From IMG/VR virus record IMGVR_UViG_2563366949_000003: a DNA stretch of 24,564 bases. One strand, written 5' to 3'. The position numbers and the translations under genes were made by a program. This document shows, piece by piece, positions 3,365-12,650 of this stretch (the first letter of the stretch is position 1; each line of letters begins with the position of its first letter). The notes beneath the pieces were generated by a model, which ran no database searches, was not told the DNA's origin, and saw only the letters and a list, made by a program, of their open reading frames with translations. The stretch is from a virus (taxonomy: Duplodnaviria > Heunggongvirae > Uroviricota > Caudoviricetes).

Positions 3365-4117
3365 ATGAACCTTGAAGCTTTACCAAAATATTACTCCCCA
3401 AAATCGCCAAAATTGAGTGATGACGCACCGGCGACAGGCTCGGGTGGTTTAACAATAACAGATGTGATGGCTGCGCAGGGGATGGTGCAGTCGAAAGCTC
3501 CGCTTGGTTTTGCCTTATTCCTGGCAAAAGTTGGTGTTCAGGATCCTCAGTTTGCGATTGAAGGTCTGCTCAATTACGCGATGGCAATGGATAATCCGAC
3601 ATTGAACAAATTGAGTGAAGAAATCCGGTTACAGATCATCCCTTACCTTGTGAATTTTGCCTTTGCTGATTATTCCAGGTCTGCGGCAAGTAAGGCTCGC
3701 TGTGAGTATTGTGCTGGTACTGGATTTCATAATGTATTGCGCGAAGTGGTGAAACACTCCAGAAGTGGGGAATCTGTTATCAAGGAAGAGTGGGTGAAGG
3801 AACTATGTCAGCATTGCCATGGTAAGGGAGAAGTCAGCACAGCGTGCAGAGGGTGTAAGGGGAAAGGTATTGTCCTGGATGAAAAAAGAACCCGGCTTCA
3901 TAGCACGCCTGTTTATAAGGTTTGTGGGCGTTGCAATGGAAACCGGTTTAGTCGTTTACCAACGACACTGGCGCGGTGTCATGTCCAGAAGCTGGTACCA
4001 GACCTGACGGATTATCAGTGGTACAAAGGATATGCAGATGTCATTGATAAACTGGTTACAAAGTGCTGGCAGGAAGAAGCATATGCTGAGGTGCAATTAA
4101 GAAAAGTGACGAGATAA
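3365..4117 (+). CDS. quuQ: Late antiterminator Q (QuuQ type, 250 aa, multiple CxxC zinc motifs)
   Basis: The 250-aa product has three CxxC pairs (CEYCAGTG, CQHCHGKGE, CRGCKGKG) and matches the Qin-type Q antiterminator by length and position upstream of the lysis genes. Confidence 0.75.
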   Translation: MNLEALPKYYSPKSPKLSDDAPATGSGGLTITDVMAAQGMVQSKAPLGFALFLAKVGVQDPQFAIEGLLNYAMAMDNPTLNKLSEEIRLQIIPYLVNFAFADYSRSAASKARCEYCAGTGFHNVLREVVKHSRSGESVIKEEWVKELCQHCHGKGEVSTACRGCKGKGIVLDEKRTRLHSTPVYKVCGRCNGNRFSRLPTTLARCHVQKLVPDLTDYQWYKGYADVIDKLVTKCWQEEAYAEVQLRKVTR

Positions 4118-4367
4118 ATGATTTTCACCGAACGATGGCGACATAACGATTGTATTTTCTAAGGAAACGTGCAAAGAGTTTTCCAATGATGAGCCTTATA
4201 TGCATACCGGTGGAAAATATCAATAAGCCGCGCAGAGTGGTTTTTTTGTGGACATAAACTTTGTGCAGAACGGTAACCATTATGGTTGCCGTGAATGCAG
4301 TTTTTTTACATTGCTGGCTTTTTTAGATTTGTGTTAGTTCTTGATATTAACAAGAAGGGGAAAAGAC

Positions 4368-4469
4368 ATGCTAAAACGGCAGGATATGAAGGAAACGGTT
4401 ATGCGTGAATGTTCCAGTGTGATTAACCATATCATCTGGAGAAGCCATCCTGATGCAGGGAAGAGGTAA
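4368..4469 (+). CDS. Small ORF (33 aa), unknown
   Basis: A GGGGA RBS lies 8-9 nt upstream of ATG 4368; product MLKRQDMKETVMRECSSVINHIIWRSHPDAGKR. It is below the ORF-track length cutoff and has no recognised family. Confidence 0.2.
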   Translation: MLKRQDMKETVMRECSSVINHIIWRSHPDAGKR

Positions 4470-4832
4470 CAGTAACGCGCATCAATCAGGCTGCAAATAA
4501 ATGGCTTACGCCGGAAATCTGGCTATCGATGTATTACCGGTTTGTTACCCATGAAGAAAATTAAGGTGATAACGAAACTGATTTTATAGGTGTCTTGTCA
4601 GAGTGTTGCGATGAAACTTGTGTTGGCAGTGCAGGGAAAACAGTAGGATGAAAATTATAAATTGCTTTAAATTAGCTTGATTTTCCTCATGTTATGAGAT
4701 ATTTGTCTTATATTGCTGGTTAATTATGAAAATTTTTGTAAATCTACAGCAATAAAATCCATATTAATTAAAGCACTAGATGCGTTTCTGATTTGTGCAT
4801 GAAACATACATATCATAATGATTAATTGCATC

Positions 4833-4838
4833 TATAAT
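4833..4838 (+). promoter_or_regulatory. Candidate -10 hexamer TATAAT upstream of small-ORF pair
   Basis: A perfect TATAAT sits 40 nt upstream of ATG 4879 in a very AT-rich stretch. No convincing -35 was found. Confidence 0.2.
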
Positions 4839-4878
4839 TACAGATACAGCATTGTGCTGTTAAAAAACTGGAGTCCCC

Positions 4879-4986
4879 ATGAATACATTATATGTAAGTG
4901 ATTCAAATGAAAAATCTCATGACAGGAATAAAAACAATGAGGATAGTAAGGGTAAGGATAATAAAAAAGACAACCGGAAAGAGTAA
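4879..4986 (+). CDS. Small highly charged ORF (35 aa), unknown
   Basis: GGAG lies 8 nt upstream of ATG 4879; product MNTLYVSDSNEKSHDRNKNNEDSKGKDNKKDNRKE is Lys/Asp/Asn-rich and hydrophilic. Confidence 0.25.
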   Translation: MNTLYVSDSNEKSHDRNKNNEDSKGKDNKKDNRKE

Positions 4987-5021
4987 ATAATCTTTCCTGC
5001 ATAAAAATACTAGGGTGGAAT

Positions 5022-5141
5022 ATGTCAGAACATCCAGATTTTGATGACCGTAAGCCTGATGATGAGCCCGTTGAGCGTCCTGATGAGGGGCAACCATTGA
5101 ACCCTTTTTCACCGGATGATAAAAGAGATCCTATTATTTAG
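5022..5141 (+). CDS. Small acidic proline-rich ORF (39 aa), unknown
   Basis: GGTGG lies 5 nt upstream of ATG 5022; product MSEHPDFDDRKPDDEPVERPDEGQPLNPFSPDDKRDPII. A strong intrinsic terminator follows about 50 nt downstream. Confidence 0.3.
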   Translation: MSEHPDFDDRKPDDEPVERPDEGQPLNPFSPDDKRDPII

Positions 5142-5192
5142 ATATAGCAGAATATAGCCGTTTAAAGTAGGTTGTGTTTTGTTGCTATCCTT

Positions 5193-5221
5193 AAACCACC
5201 TCCACAGGAGGTGGTTTTTTA
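5193..5221 (+). terminator. Rho-independent terminator (11-bp stem AAACCACCTCC / GGAGGTGGTTT, U-tract)
   Basis: Perfect inverted repeat with a 4-nt loop, followed by TTTTTT. It lies between the plus-strand small ORFs and the convergent minus-strand ORF at 5278-5463. Confidence 0.6.
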
Positions 5222-5277
5222 CTAATGGAACATTAATTGGCAGATGTGATTGTGTACGACTTATGGGAGGCTTAAGA

Positions 5278-5463
5278 TTATTTTCTGCCAATAATAAAAC
5301 CAAGCGTTAACCCTATGCTTAGAGCAACCACCACGCTAGTCAGTGGATAATTTCTAAATTTATCTTTAACGTTTTCTTTGCCTCCCTGCAAAGCATCGTC
5401 AGCACATGATGCATATTTTTTGACAGTATTAACTATTTCGTTTTCAGATTGATTTGAAGTCAT
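5278..5463 (-). CDS. DUF883 (ElaB/YqjD/YgaM-like) C-tail-anchored small membrane protein
   Basis: The C-terminus NYPLTSVVVALSIGLTLGFIIGRK matches the ElaB-family tail anchor (hydrophobic helix ending GRK/GRR). The ATG at 5461-5463 gives 61 aa; a TTG at 5562 would give 94 aa, closer to typical family length. Confidence 0.45.
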   Translation of the reverse strand: MTSNQSENEIVNTVKKYASCADDALQGGKENVKDKFRNYPLTSVVVALSIGLTLGFIIGRK

Positions 5464-5916
5464 GTTTGAAGTCCTGATGTTAAGTGGCTTTTTAATTATA
5501 GCAGATATGCTTTCAATGATAGGGCGGAGAGTTGTTATTGAGGTGATACTATGGCCACTCAATCAACATTACATAAAATGACGTTTACTCCTGTTTGGCA
5601 CAGTAGCAGAATTTTGCTTCTGCTACTGAAGTCGCTTTAGCACTAGAATATGCAGATGGATAAAGCAGTTCAGCGTATGTACTGCGTCATGCATATCGGT
5701 CTTGCAGATATGACGAGAAGGGGAGACAAGGTGTGTGTAATGTAGAAGTCTTTAAAGTGCTGTCTGGGATAACTCTATACTGAAGTGCAATTGATAAAAG
5801 TAACACGATAAAGGTTTTTCAATGAAGATGGTAACGTGATGCTTGCATTTTTCAAAAAATATGGATAAAATTTTTTCAACGATGGGCTTTGTATACCCGA
5901 CGTTAAGAAAAAGTAG

Positions 5917-5941
5917 AAAACCCGCTGATGAGCGGGTTTTG
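5917..5941. terminator. Bidirectional hairpin terminator (AAAACCCGCT-GATG-AGCGGGTTTT)
   Basis: The stem is flanked by an A-run on one side and a T-run on the other, so it could terminate either strand. It lies about 290 nt downstream of cspF on the minus strand. Confidence 0.45.
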
Positions 5942-6232
5942 TGCTTTAAATGGGGCAATGGTAATGTTGAATCTCATCCCGGGACTCATGTCTGTTAACT
6001 TATTATTTAGCTGGTGACTTGGTTATTTGCCTGATGTTTAAAATGTTTTCTTCCAGTACAATGTCCCTAAACACAATGAGTCTGCTTATTATATTATTAG
6101 CAGAGCTATTACGGCCAAAGTACAGCATAAGCTTTTAAAGCCAGTCAACCAGTCATCAAGACAGACGGGGTTATTCATAAAAACTCTCCATGTGTGATCC
6201 GATGGGGCCTGAAATTAAAGCTTTAATATAGC

Positions 6233-6445
6233 TCATGAAAGGTAAACATTGGCAGCTGAAGGGCCACGCAGAGCATTTATCCGGCAAAATTCCACGCGTA
6301 ATCCGGTGGTAATTTCTTCTGCATCGCGGAGATTGAGCGCTGAAACATGAAGCTGGACATCGATACGACCATCGGATGGGGTGATAAGACCCTTGCCGCT
6401 TTTGCCGTCAAAGGTTTTGACAATTCCTGTCATTTTACGGGACAA
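6233..6445 (-). CDS. cspF: Cold-shock protein CspF-type paralog
   Basis: The 70-aa product [26 protein letters not shown]... is a cold-shock-domain protein of the CspF/CspH subtype, divergent from cspB as in Qin. Confidence 0.85.
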
Positions 6446-6745
6446 AAAAATTCCTTAATACTGATAACTTGGCGCACTATACACACTTTCCTGAAGAAAG
6501 CTATAGTTTTTTGATGGGGTTGAAGATGGCTGGATGTCTAAAATAAACATTGCTTCATATGTTCAACTATGCGTTAATGATTGCGTCGGTTTGAAGAACA
6601 GACGATATACGAAGTAGTTTACTAAAGCAGTTCTCATTTCAGGTGTTATTCACTTATTCCTTCTTTGAGTCTCTCCAATTAAGTACGAAGTCGTTTCTGT
6701 TATACAAGCCATTTATGCCGAAAGGCTCAAGTTAAGGAATGTAGA

Positions 6746-6961
6746 ATGTCAAATAAAATGACTGGTTTAGTAAAATGGTTTAACGCTGATAAAGGTTTTG
6801 GCTTTATTTCTCCTGTTGATGGTAGTAAAGATGTGTTTGTGCATTTTTCTGCGATTCAGAATGATAATTTTCGAACCTTATTTGAAGGTCAAAAGGTTAC
6901 CTTCTCTGTAGAGAGTGGTGCTAAAGGTCCTGCAGCAGCAAATGTCATAATTACTGATTAA
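6746..6961 (+). CDS. cspB: Cold-shock protein CspB
   Basis: The 71-aa product [51 protein letters not shown]... carries the RNP1/RNP2 motifs and is near-identical to E. coli CspB. A long upstream leader is typical of csp genes. Confidence 0.9.
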
Positions 6962-7242
6962 AATTAATAGTTTGTCTGTATACGATAACGAAGAAGGCTG
7001 ATGCCTGAGTGGAGATACAGACAGAGTGGTGAATATTGGATCTCTTTAATAAATAGTAAGGAGATCCAATACATGAAACAATGGCCAGCATATTTGGCAA
7101 TAACTTAATCAGGAAAAGTATGCTAACCATTGTGGTGAAGTGCAGGTTTGCTGCATGAATAGTTTTACAGCAGAAGCTAACTGCTAGCATAGCAAAACAA
7201 AGTGCGTAAGTGGATGACTCCCACAAAAAGCACCACAATATT

Positions 7243-7267
7243 AAACCCGCTCAGGCGGGTTTTTTAT
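7243..7267. terminator. Hairpin terminator (AAACCCGC-TCAG-GCGGGTTTTTT)
   Basis: GC stem followed by TTTTTTATT on the plus strand. It sits between convergent cspB (+) and the minus-strand zinc-ribbon ORF. Confidence 0.55.
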
Positions 7268-7324
7268 TATCTGCTTTAAATATGTTATTAAAATATAAAA
7301 AATACTTGTTACGAATAAAATCAA

Positions 7325-7495
7325 TCAAGCTACAGCTTTAAGATTTGTCTGGAATACTTTGTTGCAATGAGGGCAGATCAAAAGAGCACCTTTTTGTACT
7401 CTTGAAAAACTGTGTTCTGACTCTTGGGTGCAGTTTGGGCAGGAACATTTAACGAGATAATTACGGCGTGATTTTGAGTCTTTACGTTCTGACAT
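7325..7495 (-). CDS. Small zinc-ribbon protein (CxCPxC...CPHC), unknown function
   Basis: AGGAAA lies upstream of the ATG at 7493-7495. The 56-aa product MSERKDSKSRRNYLVKCSCPNCTQESEHSFSRVQKGALLICPHCNKVFQTNLKAVA has two Cys pairs about 20 residues apart. The track's longer form (to 7546) lacks an RBS. Confidence 0.4.
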   Translation of the reverse strand: MSERKDSKSRRNYLVKCSCPNCTQESEHSFSRVQKGALLICPHCNKVFQTNLKAVA

Positions 7496-7713
7496 AGGCT
7501 TTTCCTGTATAAATGGCCGTATACAGTACACTAAATGTGAAAACATATCTCGTATTATTATTTAATATATGATTTTCTTTTAAAATAATTACCCACATTT
7601 TTAATGTGTCTGTTTTTTAGCGCCGTTGAGAACAACGTTTGCTATAAAAACTAACCCATAGACTCCGATCTTTTCAAACATATTGCACCATCTGTGTACA
7701 TCGGGGTGAGGAT

Positions 7714-7929
7714 ATGAAATCAATGGATAAGTTAACAACAGGTATCGCCTATGGCACATCGGCGGGTAATGCTGGTTTCTGGGCATTGCAGTTACTCGAT
7801 AAAGTAACTCCGTCACAGTGGGCTGCAATCGGTGTGCTGGGTAGTCTGGTTTTTGGCCTGCTGACATATCTGACAAACCTTTATTTCAAGATTAAAGAAG
7901 ACAGGCGTAAGGTTGCGAGAAGAGAGTAA
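7714..7929 (+). CDS. essQ: Holin, phage 21 S-type (class II)
   Basis: The 71-aa product [31 protein letters not shown]... has two transmembrane segments and a charged C-terminus, matching S21/EssQ-type holins. Confidence 0.85.
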
Positions 7930-7933
7930 TCCA

Positions 7934-8485
7934 ATGACTCAAGACTATGAACTGGTTGTGAAAGGAGTTCGCAATTTTGAGAATAAAGTGGCGGTAACTG
8001 TAGCCTTACGGGACAAAAAACACTTTGACGGTGAAATTTTTGACCTGGACATCTCGCTGGACCGTGTTGAAGGTGCCGCGCTGGAGTTTTATGAGGCAGC
8101 AGCCAGAAGGAGCATCAGACAGGTCTTCCTGGATGTTGCTGCCGGGTTATGTGAAGGGGATGAGCAGTCGCCGGAAAAGCGCCCCATAATTTTAGAGGCG
8201 CAGAATGTGTGGATAACCTACAAAGGAAAGCTACCGGGAAGAATTACTGGTTCTCTGAAGACGCCACCGACGGCATTGCGGTCAGAAAAAGATGATATTG
8301 AATCGCCCATTGAAAAACTGGAGGGCAGCGTCGCTGATCTGAATAAAAAATTGTCGGTGCTGATTCCTTCTGAAGATGAAAAAAAACGCCGCGATGAGCA
8401 GTTTGCGGCGTTTTACGATTATTGCATTGAAGTTACTCGCAGGAATTTTGTGAAGATTTTTGAGGAGGGTAAATCTCTTCAGTAA
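7934..8485 (+). CDS. DUF1327 (YdfR-like) protein with C-terminal extension
   Basis: ATG 7934 follows the holin stop. The N-terminus MTQDYELVVKGVRNFENK... resembles Qin YdfR, but this ORF is 183 aa versus about 100 aa recalled for YdfR. Its 3' end overlaps the convergent ORF by 53 nt and contains a hairpin. Confidence 0.5.
   Translation: MTQDYELVVKGVRNFENKVAVTVALRDKKHFDGEIFDLDISLDRVEGAALEFYEAAARRSIRQVFLDVAAGLCEGDEQSPEKRPIILEAQNVWITYKGKLPGRITGSLKTPPTALRSEKDDIESPIEKLEGSVADLNKKLSVLIPSEDEKKRRDEQFAAFYDYCIEVTRRNFVKIFEEGKSLQ
8379..8414 (-). terminator. Intrinsic terminator for minus-strand ORF 8433-8693 (GC stem CGCCGC/GCGGCG, then U8 on the minus strand)
   Basis: The inverted repeat 8387-8392 / 8405-8410 is followed on the minus strand by the complement of an 8-A run. 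It lies about 20 nt past the minus-strand stop. Confidence 0.5.
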
Positions 8486-8806: not shown

Positions 8807-9834
<1,028 letters not shown>

Positions 9835-10085
9835 ATTAATATTAAATCGGATTATTTTTAGCGCTGAATGTGAAATTTAAATAAAAAGGACTCTTCCATG
9901 AGTCAAAATCCTTGAAATCTTAAGGGTAAGATAAAAGGTCATTAGACAGAATGACACGTTTTATTAATAAATAAAGCTATTGTTTCATTCGTGTGTTTTT
10001 CTTTACAAAAGTAATCCTTGCTATGGTTGGTTAATCATGCGTTAATGGTGTTCTGGTTTGTTACAAAATTATCTGAAGCAGTCAT

Positions 10086-10094
10086 TGTTATAAT
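10086..10094 (+). promoter_or_regulatory. Candidate extended -10 promoter element (TGTTATAAT) for cspI
   Basis: A perfect TGnTATAAT lies about 105 nt upstream of the cspI ATG, consistent with the long leaders of csp genes. It has not been tested. Confidence 0.3.
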
Positions 10095-10197
10095 TTTATT
10101 ATTTGTACCTCTTGAGATTTCCTTGTTGGTTTTTCTCTCTGATATTTTTTTTCGGACCATTCTGCCCAAGGGCTAACTTCTTCAAAAGGTAATAATG

Positions 10198-10410
10198 ATG
10201 TCTAACAAAATGACTGGTTTAGTGAAATGGTTTAACCCTGAAAAAGGTTTTGGTTTCATCACGCCGAAAGATGGTAGCAAAGATGTGTTTGTCCATTTCT
10301 CAGCTATTCAGAGCAACGATTTCAAAACGTTAACTGAGAATCAGGAAGTCGAATTTGGTATTGAGAACGGACCTAAAGGCCCCGCGGCTGTTCATGTTGT
10401 GGCACTTTGA
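10198..10410 (+). CDS. cspI: Cold-shock protein CspI
   Basis: The 70-aa product [70 protein letters not shown] matches CspI as recalled. Confidence 0.9.
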
Positions 10411-10609
10411 GGTAGAAAATATTACAAACCATATTCACTTTAGATGCCCGTGTTGCCATGGTTCTCAGTATAGAACATCATCTTTTGATGTTTCTGACAG
10501 GAATCCTTTCGGGGCAAAATGTATCTTTTGTAAATCAATGATGATTACATTTGATAATATTTCACAATACTTAAATGTTAGCCGTCTGTCGTTAGATTTA
10601 AGAAAGTGA
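10394..10609 (+). CDS. Candidate small zinc-ribbon ORF (CPCCHG...CIFC) downstream of cspI
   Basis: An in-frame ATG at 10394 overlaps the cspI 3' end, and the stop lies 6 nt before the terminator at 10615. The RBS is weak and the start uncertain; the track's TTG start is at 10355. Confidence 0.3.
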
Positions 10610-10614
10610 AAATG

Positions 10615-10638
10615 AAGGCTCCTTCGGGAGCTTTTTTG
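10615..10638 (+). terminator. Rho-independent terminator (GGCTCC-TTCG-GGAGC then TTTTTTG)
   Basis: GC stem with a UUCG tetraloop followed by a U-tract, about 200 nt downstream of cspI. Confidence 0.6.
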
Positions 10639-10681
10639 CTTAGTGTCTAGTCGATGGATACTCACATATTACGGTAACATT

Positions 10682-10912
10682 ATGAAAAAAATAATAGTTT
10701 TTTTTAACTCTGAACCAGCAATGGTAGTGCCAGTGATGACCGGAGTTAACACCATCATGCGTGAATATCCAAATGGCGAAACAACACACCTCACTGTAAT
10801 GGCTGCAGGGTTTCCATCTCTGACCGGAGATCATAAAGTCATTTATGTAGCAGCGGATCGACATGTAACTTCAGAAGAAATTCTGGAAGCAGCAATGAGA
10901 CTCTTGAATTGA
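10682..10912 (+). CDS. Hypothetical protein (76 aa)
   Basis: ATG 10682 is the first ATG of the ORF and has no clear RBS. The stop TGA 10910-10912 lies 4 bp before the IS2 left end and is native, not created by the insertion. No family recognised. Confidence 0.3.
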   Translation: MKKIIVFFNSEPAMVVPVMTGVNTIMREYPNGETTHLTVMAAGFPSLTGDHKVIYVAADRHVTSEEILEAAMRLLN

Positions 10913-11007
10913 TTTGTAGACTGGCCCCCTGAATCTCCAGACAACCAATATCACTTATTTAAGTGATAGTCTTAATACTAGTTTTTAGACTAGTCATTGG
11001 AGAGCAG

Positions 11008-11373
11008 ATGATTGATGTCTTAGGACCGGAGAAACGCAGACGGCGTACCACACAGGAAAAGATCGCAATTGTTCAGCAGAGCTTTGAACCAGGGATGACG
11101 GTCTCCCTCGTTGCCCGGCAACACGGTGTGGCAGCCAGCCAGTTATTTCTCTGGCGTAAGCAATACCAGGAAGGAAGTCTTACTGCTGTCGCCGCCGGAG
11201 AACAGGTTGTTCCTGCCTCTGAACTTGCTGCCGCCATGAAGCAGATTAAAGAACTCCAGCGCCTGCTCGGCAAGAAAACGATGGAAAATGAACTCCTCAA
11301 AGAAGCCGTTGAATATGGACGGGCAAAAAAGTGGATAGCGCACGCGCCCTTATTGCCCGGGGATGGGGAGTAA
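11008..11373 (+). CDS. insC: IS2 transposase OrfA (InsC)
   Basis: The 121-aa product [41 protein letters not shown]... contains a helix-turn-helix. The slippery A6G at 11325-11331 is at its 3' end. Confidence 0.9.
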
Positions 11374-12236
11374 GCTTAGTCAGCCGTTGTCTCCGGGTGT
11401 CGCGTGCGCAGTTGCACGTCATTCTCAGACGAACCGATGACTGGATGGATGGCCGCCGCAGTCGTCACACTGATGATACGGATGTGCTTCTCCGTATACA
11501 CCATGTTATCGGAGAGCTGCCCACGTATGGTTATCGTCGGGTATGGGCGCTGCTTCGCAGACAGGCAGAACTTGATGGTATGCCTGCGATCAATGCCAAA
11601 CGTGTTTACCGGATCATGCGCCAGAATGCGCTGTTGCTTGAGCGAAAACCTGCTGTACCGCCATCGAAACGGGCACATACAGGCAGAGTGGCTGTGAAAG
11701 AAAGTAATCAGCGATGGTGCTCTGACGGGTTCGAGTTCCGCTGTGATAACGGAGAAAAACTGCGAGTCACGTTCGCGCTGGACTGCTGTGACCGTGAGGC
11801 ACTGCACTGGGCGGTCACTACGGGCGGCTTCAACAGTGAAACAGTACAGGACGTCATGCTGGGAGCGGTGGAACGCCGCTTCGGCAACGAGCTTCCGGCG
11901 TCTCCAGTAGAGTGGCTGACGGATAATGGTTCATGCTACCGGGCTAATGAAACACGGCAGTTTGCCCGGATGTTGGGGCTTGAACCGAAGAGCACGGCGG
12001 TGCGGAGTCCGGAGAGTAACGGCATAGCAGAGAGCTTCGTGAAAACGATAAAGCGTGACTACATCAGTGTCATGCCCAAACCAGACGGGTTAACGGCAGC
12101 AAAGAACCTTGCAGAGGCGTTCGAGCATTATAACGAATGGCATCCGCATAGTGCACTGGGTTATCGCTCGCCACGGGAATATCTGCGGCAGCAAGCCAGT
12201 AATGGGTTAAGTGATAACAGGTGTCTGGAAATATAG
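11331..12236 (+). CDS. insD: IS2 transposase OrfB (InsD; DDE catalytic domain, made as InsCD fusion by -1 frameshift)
   Basis: The 301-aa ORF is in the -1 frame relative to insC and overlaps it. It carries an IS3-family DDE integrase core. Confidence 0.9.
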
Positions 12237-12420
12237 GGGCAAATCCAATTTGATTCTAATGCATTGATAATAAATGATAATCATCTTTATCTGTTTGTGT
12301 GAAATTTAGACCGTCGTATGTTGATTATTGCGATGTTTCATCTTATCTTTTATACGTTTGCTCCATATAATTGACACTACTGTGTACCAGGAAAGTCATA
12401 ACAGACTAAAAGAGGAAATG

Positions 12421-12594
12421 ATGAACATTGAAGAGTTAAAAACAAAAACAGAAGCAGATATTTCTGAATATATAACAAAAAAAATCATTGAGCTTAAGAA
12501 AAAGACCGGGAAAGAAGTTACCAGTATCCAGTTTACTGCACGGGAAAAAATGACTGGTCTTGAAAGCTATGATATCAAGATTGATTTAATCTAG
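12421..12594 (+). CDS. gnsB: GnsA/GnsB family protein
   Basis: AGAGGA RBS precedes the ATG. The 57-aa product MNIEELKTKTEADISEYITKKIIELKKKTGKEVTSIQFTAREKMTGLESYDIKIDLI matches the GnsA/GnsB family. Confidence 0.8.
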   Translation: MNIEELKTKTEADISEYITKKIIELKKKTGKEVTSIQFTAREKMTGLESYDIKIDLI

Positions 12595-12650
12595 TCTGTT
12601 TATAGTATTAGCATCAATTTCTTGTCAGATGCTATTCAACAATACAATTT

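Follow-up and report, generated by a model that had tools for sequence, protein, structure and literature searches.

A probable displaced Q-dependent late promoter and an uncharacterized three-gene cassette between the Q and holin genes of a Qin-like lambdoid prophage

Phage morons, a concept that goes back to the Hendrix group, are autonomous promoter-gene-terminator cassettes of lambdoid phages. The start of late transcription in phage lambda itself is marked by a sigma-70-dependent pause element, AACGAT at positions +1 to +6 followed by GGG, which is needed for the loading of the antiterminator Q, with the pause at +16 (PMC4005639). Here we describe the interval at positions 4118-7713 of the IMG/VR virus record IMGVR_UViG_2563366949_000003 (hereafter, the window: 24,564 nucleotides (nt), Caudoviricetes), which is flanked by a lambda-family Q gene that ends at 4117 and an essQ-type holin gene that starts at 7714. 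This interval is a mosaic of two halves, the right one (5843-7713) of the type found in the Qin prophage of Escherichia coli K-12 and the left one (~4120-5842) without a K-12 counterpart. Two tandem copies of a unit resembling the lambda late promoter pR' bracket the left half. The distal copy is probably the Q-dependent late promoter and the Q-proximal copy a vestige, and between the two lies a three-gene cassette that, judging from its relatives, is best read as a new moron. The best explanation for the interval is that it is a cargo ('moron') region of a Qin-like lambdoid prophage, built by recombination from at least three sources. The full combination of a mosaic structure, a distal late promoter and an autonomous cassette appears reasonably likely to be correct.

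The two copies, 1,694 nt apart, emerged from alignments with SfV, Ayreon, K-12 Qin and lambda, and were found independently by a repeat search, as the direct repeat D1 (4060-4132 with 5754-5826, 75% identity). In the repeated unit, the final ~58 nt of Q are joined by a 31-nt linker to a promoter, which is followed by a pause element and then by a short hairpin terminator. Copy 2 (5843-5947, plus strand) is canonical, with a -35 hexamer TTGCAT (5843-5848), a -10 hexamer TAAAAT (5866-5871), the pause element AACGAT plus GGG (5878-5886, with the predicted start at 5878) and, downstream, a tR' hairpin with a T run (5917-5940) that folds into an extended stem at 5910-5947. Written out, copy 2 reads TTGCAT-17 nt-TAAAAT-TTTTTC-AACGATGGG, compared with TTGACT-17 nt-TAAATT-TGACTC-AACGATGGG for lambda pR' (taken from NC_001416); it has every sequence feature of a lambda-type Q-loading site. 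Copy 1 (4150-4247, plus strand) is degenerate, with a -35 TTGTAT (4150-4155), a -10 AAAGAG (4173-4178), a pause-like AATGATGAG (4185-4193) and a weak hairpin with a T run (4225-4247). Copy 1 lies 32 nt past Q, and copy 2, 1,725 nt past Q.

The divergence of the two copies runs in opposite directions in the two parts of the unit. Over the 52-nt core (-35 to +17), copy 2 is identical to K-12 Qin (52/52) and nearly identical to SfV (50/52), compared with 34-36/52 for copy 1 against SfV, Ayreon and K-12; the three reference phages agree among themselves at 49-51/52, and in the 22 nt beyond, conservation between the SfV type and K-12 drops to 50%. At the 3' end of Q, it is copy 1 that matches SfV (57/58, compared with 43/58 for copy 2), and against the references in general, the genuine Q end scores 51-57/58 and the stub that precedes copy 2, 41-43/58. 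This stub (5754-5811, plus strand), delineated by D1, is what is left of a second Q gene, namely, its last 58 nt, and contains an in-frame TAA that was read by eye from the sequence rather than computed. At the level of sequence comparison, these patterns establish that the regulatory unit was duplicated and then decayed reciprocally, such that copy 1 kept the coding end of Q and copy 2 kept the promoter, the pause element and the terminator.

Of the 5,426 complete E. coli genomes, 40 carry the left half (at least 99.5% identity), as do 2 of the 50,697 phage records, those of PhiR63_1 and HannyBb; the left half is missing in K-12 Qin, SfV and Ayreon, with K-12 lacking ~4146-5842. A literature search found no paper on PhiR63_1 or HannyBb. 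These are isolated phages with the same arrangement as the window, which is therefore compatible with lytic growth and a working phage. In the viral contigs of IMG/VR, a 44-nt canonical promoter pattern was detected in at least 120 cases. Among the 122 contigs with an identified Q end, the pattern starts exactly 31 nt past the Q stop codon in 110, and the remaining 12 are carriers of the left-half module, with a spacing of 1,693-1,725 nt. The exact core of copy 1 was found only in the 16 contigs that also encode the 61-amino acid (aa) protein of the cassette, and no intermediate relatives of this core were detected in the 5,426 E. coli genomes.

The location of copy 1 immediately after Q is the place where, by the 110 of 122 rule, the late promoter would be sought, and the preliminary description of this DNA expected the Q-dependent promoter just after 4117, without a confident identification, and had late transcription reading through the whole island. 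If copy 1 (4150-4193) were the late promoter, the 3.6 kb would all be transcribed, with the cassette inside the late operon. Copy 1 retains a TTG-type -35, the 17-nt spacing, a TGn ahead of the -10, AATGAT at the right distance and a hairpin followed by seven T, and the AATGAT variant is also seen in an otherwise canonical copy 2. However, its -10, AAAGAG, lacks the key T at position 6, its GGG has changed to GAG, and 9 of the 17 spacer positions differ from an element that is invariant in at least 120 contigs; the spacer, which is fixed in the canonical pattern, would be the place of the Q-binding element by analogy with lambda. Furthermore, the divergence of the copy 1 core (~31%) is on a par with that of the adjoining non-functional sequence (~25-28%), which suggests that there is no constraint. 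Late transcription from copy 1 thus appears rather improbable, and the placement of the promoter next to Q is probably wrong, given that the unit found there is degenerate and the canonical one is at 5843-5894.

The Q protein itself speaks to the same question. It consists of 250 aa (3365-4117, plus strand), belongs to the Q-lambda family PF03589 (Antiterm, E 4e-50; family definition from PMC9388147), matches the lambda Q structure (PDB 7UBM, E 2.5e-35) and contains an inserted DnaJ-type zinc finger (CXXCXGXG). It is 93% identical to K-12 QuuQ and 97% identical to the Q of SfV, which pairs with a canonical element; this supports copy 2 as the cognate site and counts against copy 1. Under the preferred reading, Q would load onto RNA polymerase at copy 2, with transcription starting at ~5878 and pausing at ~5893-5894, and the modified polymerase would read through tR' (5917-5947) and on to the holin gene at 7714. 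With the canonical promoter at 5843-5894, read-through would be required only over the 1.84 kb on the right, between 5878 and the holin, and the transcript would run antisense to ynfS and cspF, sense through cspB and its terminator (7243-7266) and antisense to ynfU. The same read-through would be needed in phages of the K-12 Qin type.

Another possibility is that both copies are active, as tandem Q-responsive promoters that give nested late transcripts, with the distal one serving as a booster after 1.7 kb. The overall architecture is present in both copies, and both are retained in all 40 of the 40 E. coli genomes as well as in the two isolated phages. The defects of copy 1 in the -10, the spacer, the GAG and the core divergence count here too, however, and the retention is explained by a very recent spread, with at least 99.5% identity among the 40 genomes and with even the most divergent lineage of viral contigs still ~98.5% identical over the module. 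Tandem activity is, in our estimate, quite improbable.

Several observations weigh against the assignment of the late promoter to copy 2. The AATGAT version of the pause element that characterizes copy 1 is also found in copy 2 of a divergent lineage (contigs L021, L022 and L024), which means that this single change is not disabling. The canonical promoter matches the sigma-70 hexamers at only 8 of 12 positions by manual count. Copy 1 is invariant in the 19 carriers compared, as is most of the module, which makes this invariance uninformative with respect to selection. Promoter activity, Q loading and read-through are all predictions from sequence, and it is formally possible that copy 1 is a Q-loading site.

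The history of the module can be partly gleaned from its neighbors. In the four viral contigs L021-L024, the Q allele has diverged by ~6%, and the sequence from 4120 on is almost identical to that of the window, with the breakpoint at 4119, at the Q stop codon; a breakpoint this sharp implies that the module moves between Q backgrounds by recombination. A deletion between the two repeats is a possible event. A general history in which the K-12 arrangement derives from the present one by deletion was considered and rejected, since many different Q alleles and cargos show the 31-nt spacing as a rule.

The intact cassette spans ~4831-5502 and includes a two-gene operon that converges on a gene on the opposite strand. 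The operon (4831-5220, plus strand), which is defined by its homologues and its terminator, has a putative -10 TCTATAATTAC (4831-4841) upstream of the first open reading frame (ORF) and a 5' palindrome ACAGCAttgTGCTGT (4846-4860) that is conserved in Enterobacter; the match of this palindrome to a LexA box (ACAG-N7-CTGT) was rejected because the half-sites come in the wrong order. The first ORF, sORF35 (35 aa, 4879-4986), has a Shine-Dalgarno (SD) sequence GGAG at 4870-4873, five nt upstream, and is rich in Lys, Asn and Asp and extremely hydrophilic, with a grand average of hydropathy (GRAVY) of -2.5. The second, sORF39 (39 aa, 5022-5141), is preceded by the SD sequence GGGTGGA and is acidic, proline-rich (isoelectric point 4.1) and also very hydrophilic. 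An intrinsic terminator at 5193-5220 was identified by folding. The third gene (5278-5502, minus strand; coding sequence (CDS) 5278-5463; WP_000203370.1; phrog_11629, E 1.8e-46) encodes a 61-aa protein and is preceded by a sigma-S-like -10 GCTATAATTAA at 5492-5502. The N-terminus of the protein is hydrophilic; residues 41-59 form a hydrophobic 19-mer (mean hydropathy 2.19) followed by RK, and this lone C-terminal hydrophobic segment with its basic end makes it a predicted tail-anchored membrane protein.

The cassette is not confined to E. coli. Genome and metagenome scans identified homologues of the 61-aa protein, with 34-57% identity, in Enterobacter, Leclercia, Atlantibacter and Silvania, and those in the 34-50% range were reached only by exhaustive HMMER search. 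A word-indexed protein search with the 61-aa protein found only the E. coli copies, and a genome scan with the single sequence gave no matches, with the relatives found by an alignment-based scan; the top HMMER matches, to giant proteins of repetitive sequence (P0003, P0006), were attributed to low complexity. All three genes, in the same convergent order, are found in Enterobacter wuhouensis and in six metagenome contigs. The Enterobacter-type cassettes show 42-48% aa identity in sORF35, 55% in sORF39 and 34% in the 61-aa protein, with an in-frame indel of 18 nt in sORF39, and conservation extends to the SD sequences, the -10 and the 5' palindrome. These cassettes are located in another slot, between Rz and the gene for the small terminase subunit of a lambdoid prophage, beside a GnsA/GnsB-family gene. 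In the Enterobacter and Leclercia/Atlantibacter loci, an ORF with the motif QEEW..S(L/I)NEWEDEGGA is linked to the 61-aa family (L047 1325-1522, minus strand; L042 3591-3779, minus strand; L166 1837-2076); no homologue of this ORF was found in the window by tblastn, and there was no meaningful Pfam match, the EF-hand_like hit (E 0.024) being at chance level and below the cut-off.

These comparisons bear on the possibility that none of the small ORFs in the left half is a gene, and that the 1.7 kb is mere recombinational debris. Much of the left half does appear to be debris, namely, a fusion of orf47 and orf48, a fragment of rha and the Q stub, and neither sORF35 nor sORF39 has a match in any family library. 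Against this, the reading frames, SD sites and gene order are kept at 34-55% aa identity in Enterobacter, at another location and in diverged DNA, the sORF39 indel is in frame, and within E. coli, the density of single-nucleotide polymorphisms (SNPs) in the three ORFs (6/414 nt) is lower than in the adjacent spacer (15/409 nt; Fisher p = 0.048). The SNP-density test is weak, 5 of the 6 SNPs in the small ORFs are non-synonymous, and the diversity within E. coli is too low for a dN/dS or purifying-selection test, so that these points temper the case for the genes. All told, it is very unlikely that the left half carries nothing other than debris. Found in two slots, and equipped with a terminator of its own and with promoter-like elements that are conserved, the cassette bears the hallmark of a moron. 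The cassette is present in some and absent from other close relatives (the 40 E. coli genomes as opposed to K-12 Qin, SfV and Ayreon) and occupies a different genomic position in the Enterobacter prophages; its GC content is 0.30-0.40, the terminator is clear, and the promoters are predicted solely from -10 motifs that are conserved across genera.

A conserved CTATrmT motif is located upstream of the genes of the 61-aa family, in the form of a -10 of the CTATAAT/CTATACT type that has a C at -13 and is extended by a TTAA-like sequence; its distance to the start codon is 30-35 nt. At the equivalent positions, the sequence is GCTATAATTAA in the window, ACTATACTTAA in Leclercia, ACTATACTGAA in Silvania and GCTATGATTAA in Enterobacter, so that four diverged orthologous regions match the extended -10 consensus of sigma-S, TCTATACTTAA (PMC3367168), at 8-10 of 11 positions. 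The motif is short and the DNA AT-rich, which detracts from the assignment, and the match accordingly suggests sigma-S control at most. Under the preferred reading, the cassette would be an autonomous moron that the lysogen expresses from promoters belonging to the cassette, and control by sigma-S, the stationary-phase and stress factor, would agree with the rest of the Qin cargo, which relates to cold shock and stress. We consider it a tenable but tentative proposal that the cassette is a small-protein module induced in stationary phase or under stress.

Further interpretations of the cassette are more speculative. The three genes may comprise an undescribed functional unit that is cross-genus, prophage-borne and expressed in the lysogen independently of the late program; possible roles include that of a stationary-phase stress module associated with the membrane or the ribosome and that of a small-protein exclusion system. 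A further element of this proposal is that this phage lineage could tolerate the cassette only thanks to the duplication of the late promoter and the decay of the copy next to Q; taken together, these suggestions are doubtful, although possible. Alternatively, the cassette might act as a toxin-antitoxin system or in abortive infection or superinfection exclusion; the 61-aa protein would then be the effector, and the antidote would be either the convergent transcript or the small proteins. The genes are convergent and have one bidirectional hairpin in common, the 61-aa product is a small membrane protein, and the location is a prophage in which, in Enterobacter and Silvania, a GnsA/GnsB-family gene (named a toxin in Pfam) is linked. 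On the other side, the cassette proteins have no function assigned in Pfam, NCBIfam or PHROGs, the coding regions do not overlap and are separated by 136 nt, the tail anchor of the 61-aa protein is more similar to those of ElaB-type proteins than to type I toxins, and the promoters look sigma-S-like. Such a role is the chief alternative to a stress module, but it appears unlikely.

The remainder of the left half consists of remnants. The region 4251-4469 (plus strand) derives from the first late genes of the SfV type, with ~75% DNA identity to SfV, Ayreon and Stx2c phages: positions 4251-4400 correspond to the leader and the first codons of orf47, and the ORF at 4368-4469 (plus strand) was shown by tblastn to join residues 1-11 of orf47 to residues 90-105 of the methylase-like orf48. 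It is followed by an AT-rich non-coding spacer (4470-4830), with no conserved ORF and no Rfam match of note; the highest SNP density of the module, 15 variable sites in 409 nt, is at 4470-4878. Downstream of the cassette, a pseudogene fragment of the 5' end of rha (5551-5733, plus strand) is 79% identical at the DNA level to the rha of PhiR26_1, and its translation is interrupted by stops and frameshifts. An 11-bp perfect hairpin, CAGTAGCAGAA/TTCTGCTACTG (5601-5628; -16.9 kcal/mol, z -3.6), is located within this fragment.

The right half is known biology. Positions 5843-7713, with ynfS, cspF, cspB and its leader, and ynfU, are ~96% identical to K-12 Qin, and the alignment at 96% extends over 5754-8139. 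The products YnfS, CspF, CspB, YnfU and EssQ differ from those of K-12 by 1-3 residues. Counting stop codons, the identity to K-12 is 29/30 codons for ynfS (6089-6178, minus strand), 70/71 for cspF (6233-6445, minus strand), 70/72 for the cspB CDS (6746-6961, plus strand) and 69/72 for the essQ-type class II holin, the first lysis gene (7714-7929, plus strand). The cspB region as a whole (6585-7266, plus strand) includes the leader and the terminator at 7243-7266, and the leader is a cspA-type thermoregulator (6585-7024, plus strand; Rfam RF01766, 159.4 bits compared with the gathering threshold of 78) that lies upstream of and overlaps the cspB CDS, in keeping with the CspA family. The ynfU gene (7325-7495, minus strand) encodes a small zinc-ribbon protein (Pfam PF23499, E 5e-31; NCBIfam NF038384). 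In K-12, the YnfS and YnfU proteins have both been detected (bioRxiv 10.1101/511675).

Some features in and around this segment are worth recording. In the cspB 3' region, upstream of the terminator at 7243, there is an 18-nt inverted repeat, TATTGGATCTCTTTAATA/TAGTAAGGAGATCCAATA (7034-7071, 89% complementary), which is also present in K-12. An ORF of the YdfR family (DUF1327; 7913-8485) encodes 190 aa here compared with 103 aa in K-12, with a TTG start that overlaps the end of the holin gene; RefSeq annotates a shorter version as an incomplete pseudogene in an identical genome, and PhiR63_1 has an annotated CDS of 552 nt. A second AT-rich cargo cluster, located past Rz (9800-12650), contains cspI, ynfQ, ynfN and gnsB, and the cspI leader is again a cspA thermoregulator (Rfam, 110 bits, 10040-10456). 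The slot of this cluster is the one that holds the three-gene cassette in the Enterobacter prophages.

As a whole, then, the interval is the AT-rich cargo island that had been proposed on first inspection: it is real and correctly bounded, but largely ordinary. The GC content is 0.30-0.43 across 4000-7800 compared with 0.47-0.58 in the upstream DNA, cspF and cspB are in place, the ORF list has small ORFs on both the plus and the minus strand, and the view that this is a classic hotspot cargo between Q and the lysis genes is supported. The preliminary description had also noted the lack of toxin and tRNA genes, and the scans concur: ARAGORN found no tRNA in the whole window, and the ORF list together with Pfam, NCBIfam and PHROGs yielded no toxin-like ORF in the interval, so that there is no sign of Stx-type cargo, which has tRNAs and an AB5 toxin operon placed between pR' and the holin. 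It had further raised the possibility that the interval is simply the annotated Qin sequence, and proposed a comparison with K-12; this holds, essentially, for the right half and fails for the left, with the ~1.7 kb at 4120-5842 being extra. In a 100% identical genome, RefSeq annotates five CDS. No match in Pfam, NCBIfam or PHROGs was found for sORF35, sORF39, ynfS, the ORFs at 4368-4469 and 5843-5998 or the 51-aa ORF at 4125-4280, and an APD1-4_N match of the ORF at 6951-7238 (E 6e-4, below the cut-off) was set aside as due to chance. Rfam searches, with gathering and E-value thresholds, detected the cspA thermoregulator only and no known small RNA in the island. A hairpin scan of the interval showed an enrichment of terminator-like hairpins, 7 compared with 2.3 +/- 1.5 in shuffled sequences. 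Four terminator hairpins are convincing, at 4225-4247 (-8.5 kcal/mol), 5193-5220 (-17.3 kcal/mol, z -4.75), 5917-5947 (-23.6 kcal/mol, z -8.7) and 7243-7266 (-15.5 kcal/mol); the one at 5193-5220 is not among the seven because its stem takes up part of the T run.

If these interpretations are correct, the start of late transcription has been relocated in this phage lineage, and a phage can stay viable with 1.7 kb of cargo between Q and the Q-dependent promoter. This would be of use for the annotation of Qin-like and Stx-like prophages, in which it matters for the expression of cargo where it lies with respect to pR'. The locus would also be a natural example of duplication of a regulatory cassette followed by reciprocal decay, which could help define the Q-binding element of a large Q subfamily. 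The three conserved small-protein genes, two of them without RefSeq annotation, are candidates for the E. coli small-protein catalogue. What is new here, then, is the displaced probable pR' and the uncharacterized cross-genus three-gene moron; no major concept is changed.

Among the known systems, K-12 Qin is the closest, with the same gene order, cspB leader and terminators and an identical pR' core. In K-12 MG1655, the promoter lies 31 nt past Q and the interval from Q (ydfT/quuQ) to essQ is 1,903 bp long, whereas the window has ~1.7 kb more, including the degenerate promoter copy. SfV, Ayreon and the Stx2c phages have the same Q (92-97%), the same canonical pR' and tR', and the orf47 leader that is still recognizable at 4251-4400 of the window; their orf47/orf48 genes are reduced here to the 102-nt fusion remnant, and the cargo is different. 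In Ayreon (L007 1802-2519) and, at the same coordinates, an Stx2c phage (L006), an insert of ~680 bp with two ORFs is bracketed by near-identical tR' hairpins (AACCCGCCACTGAGCGGGTTTTTT), which suggests that cargo has repeatedly been inserted by recombination at tR'.

The 61-aa protein is reminiscent of ElaB, YqjD and YgaM, the sigma-S-regulated DUF883 proteins of E. coli, in its putative C-terminal glycine-zipper anchor, basic end, hydrophilic N-terminus and upstream sigma-S-like motif. It differs in having no detectable N-terminal domain (no Pfam match at E <= 0.1 for either the 94-aa or the 61-aa form), and the likeness is limited to the last 28 residues, with an hhalign probability of 60% (ElaB). 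The DUF883_C profile gives E 0.14 for the window protein and 0.0048 for the best of four homologues, all below the 27-bit cut-off. With the N-terminal domain absent and DUF883_C sub-threshold, the protein was not assigned to DUF883.

The 6S RNA of lambda is 194 nt long, and the terminated leader predicted for the window, at ~65 nt, is shorter. Otherwise, the late cassette of lambda is closely comparable, with a Q of the same Pfam and structural family and a layout, TTGnnn-17-TAAAnT-6-AACGATGGG, that includes the identical pause element followed by a terminator. The window differs from lambda in the additional DnaJ-type zinc finger of Q, in the sequence of the spacer and in the duplication of the unit, the intact copy of which is remote from Q. 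Finally, the three-gene cassette is similar to the described morons in its deviant composition, its presence in some and absence from other relatives, its promoter-like elements and terminator, its site in the late region and its occurrence in a second slot; it differs in its location, which is ahead of the probable late promoter and not within the late transcript.

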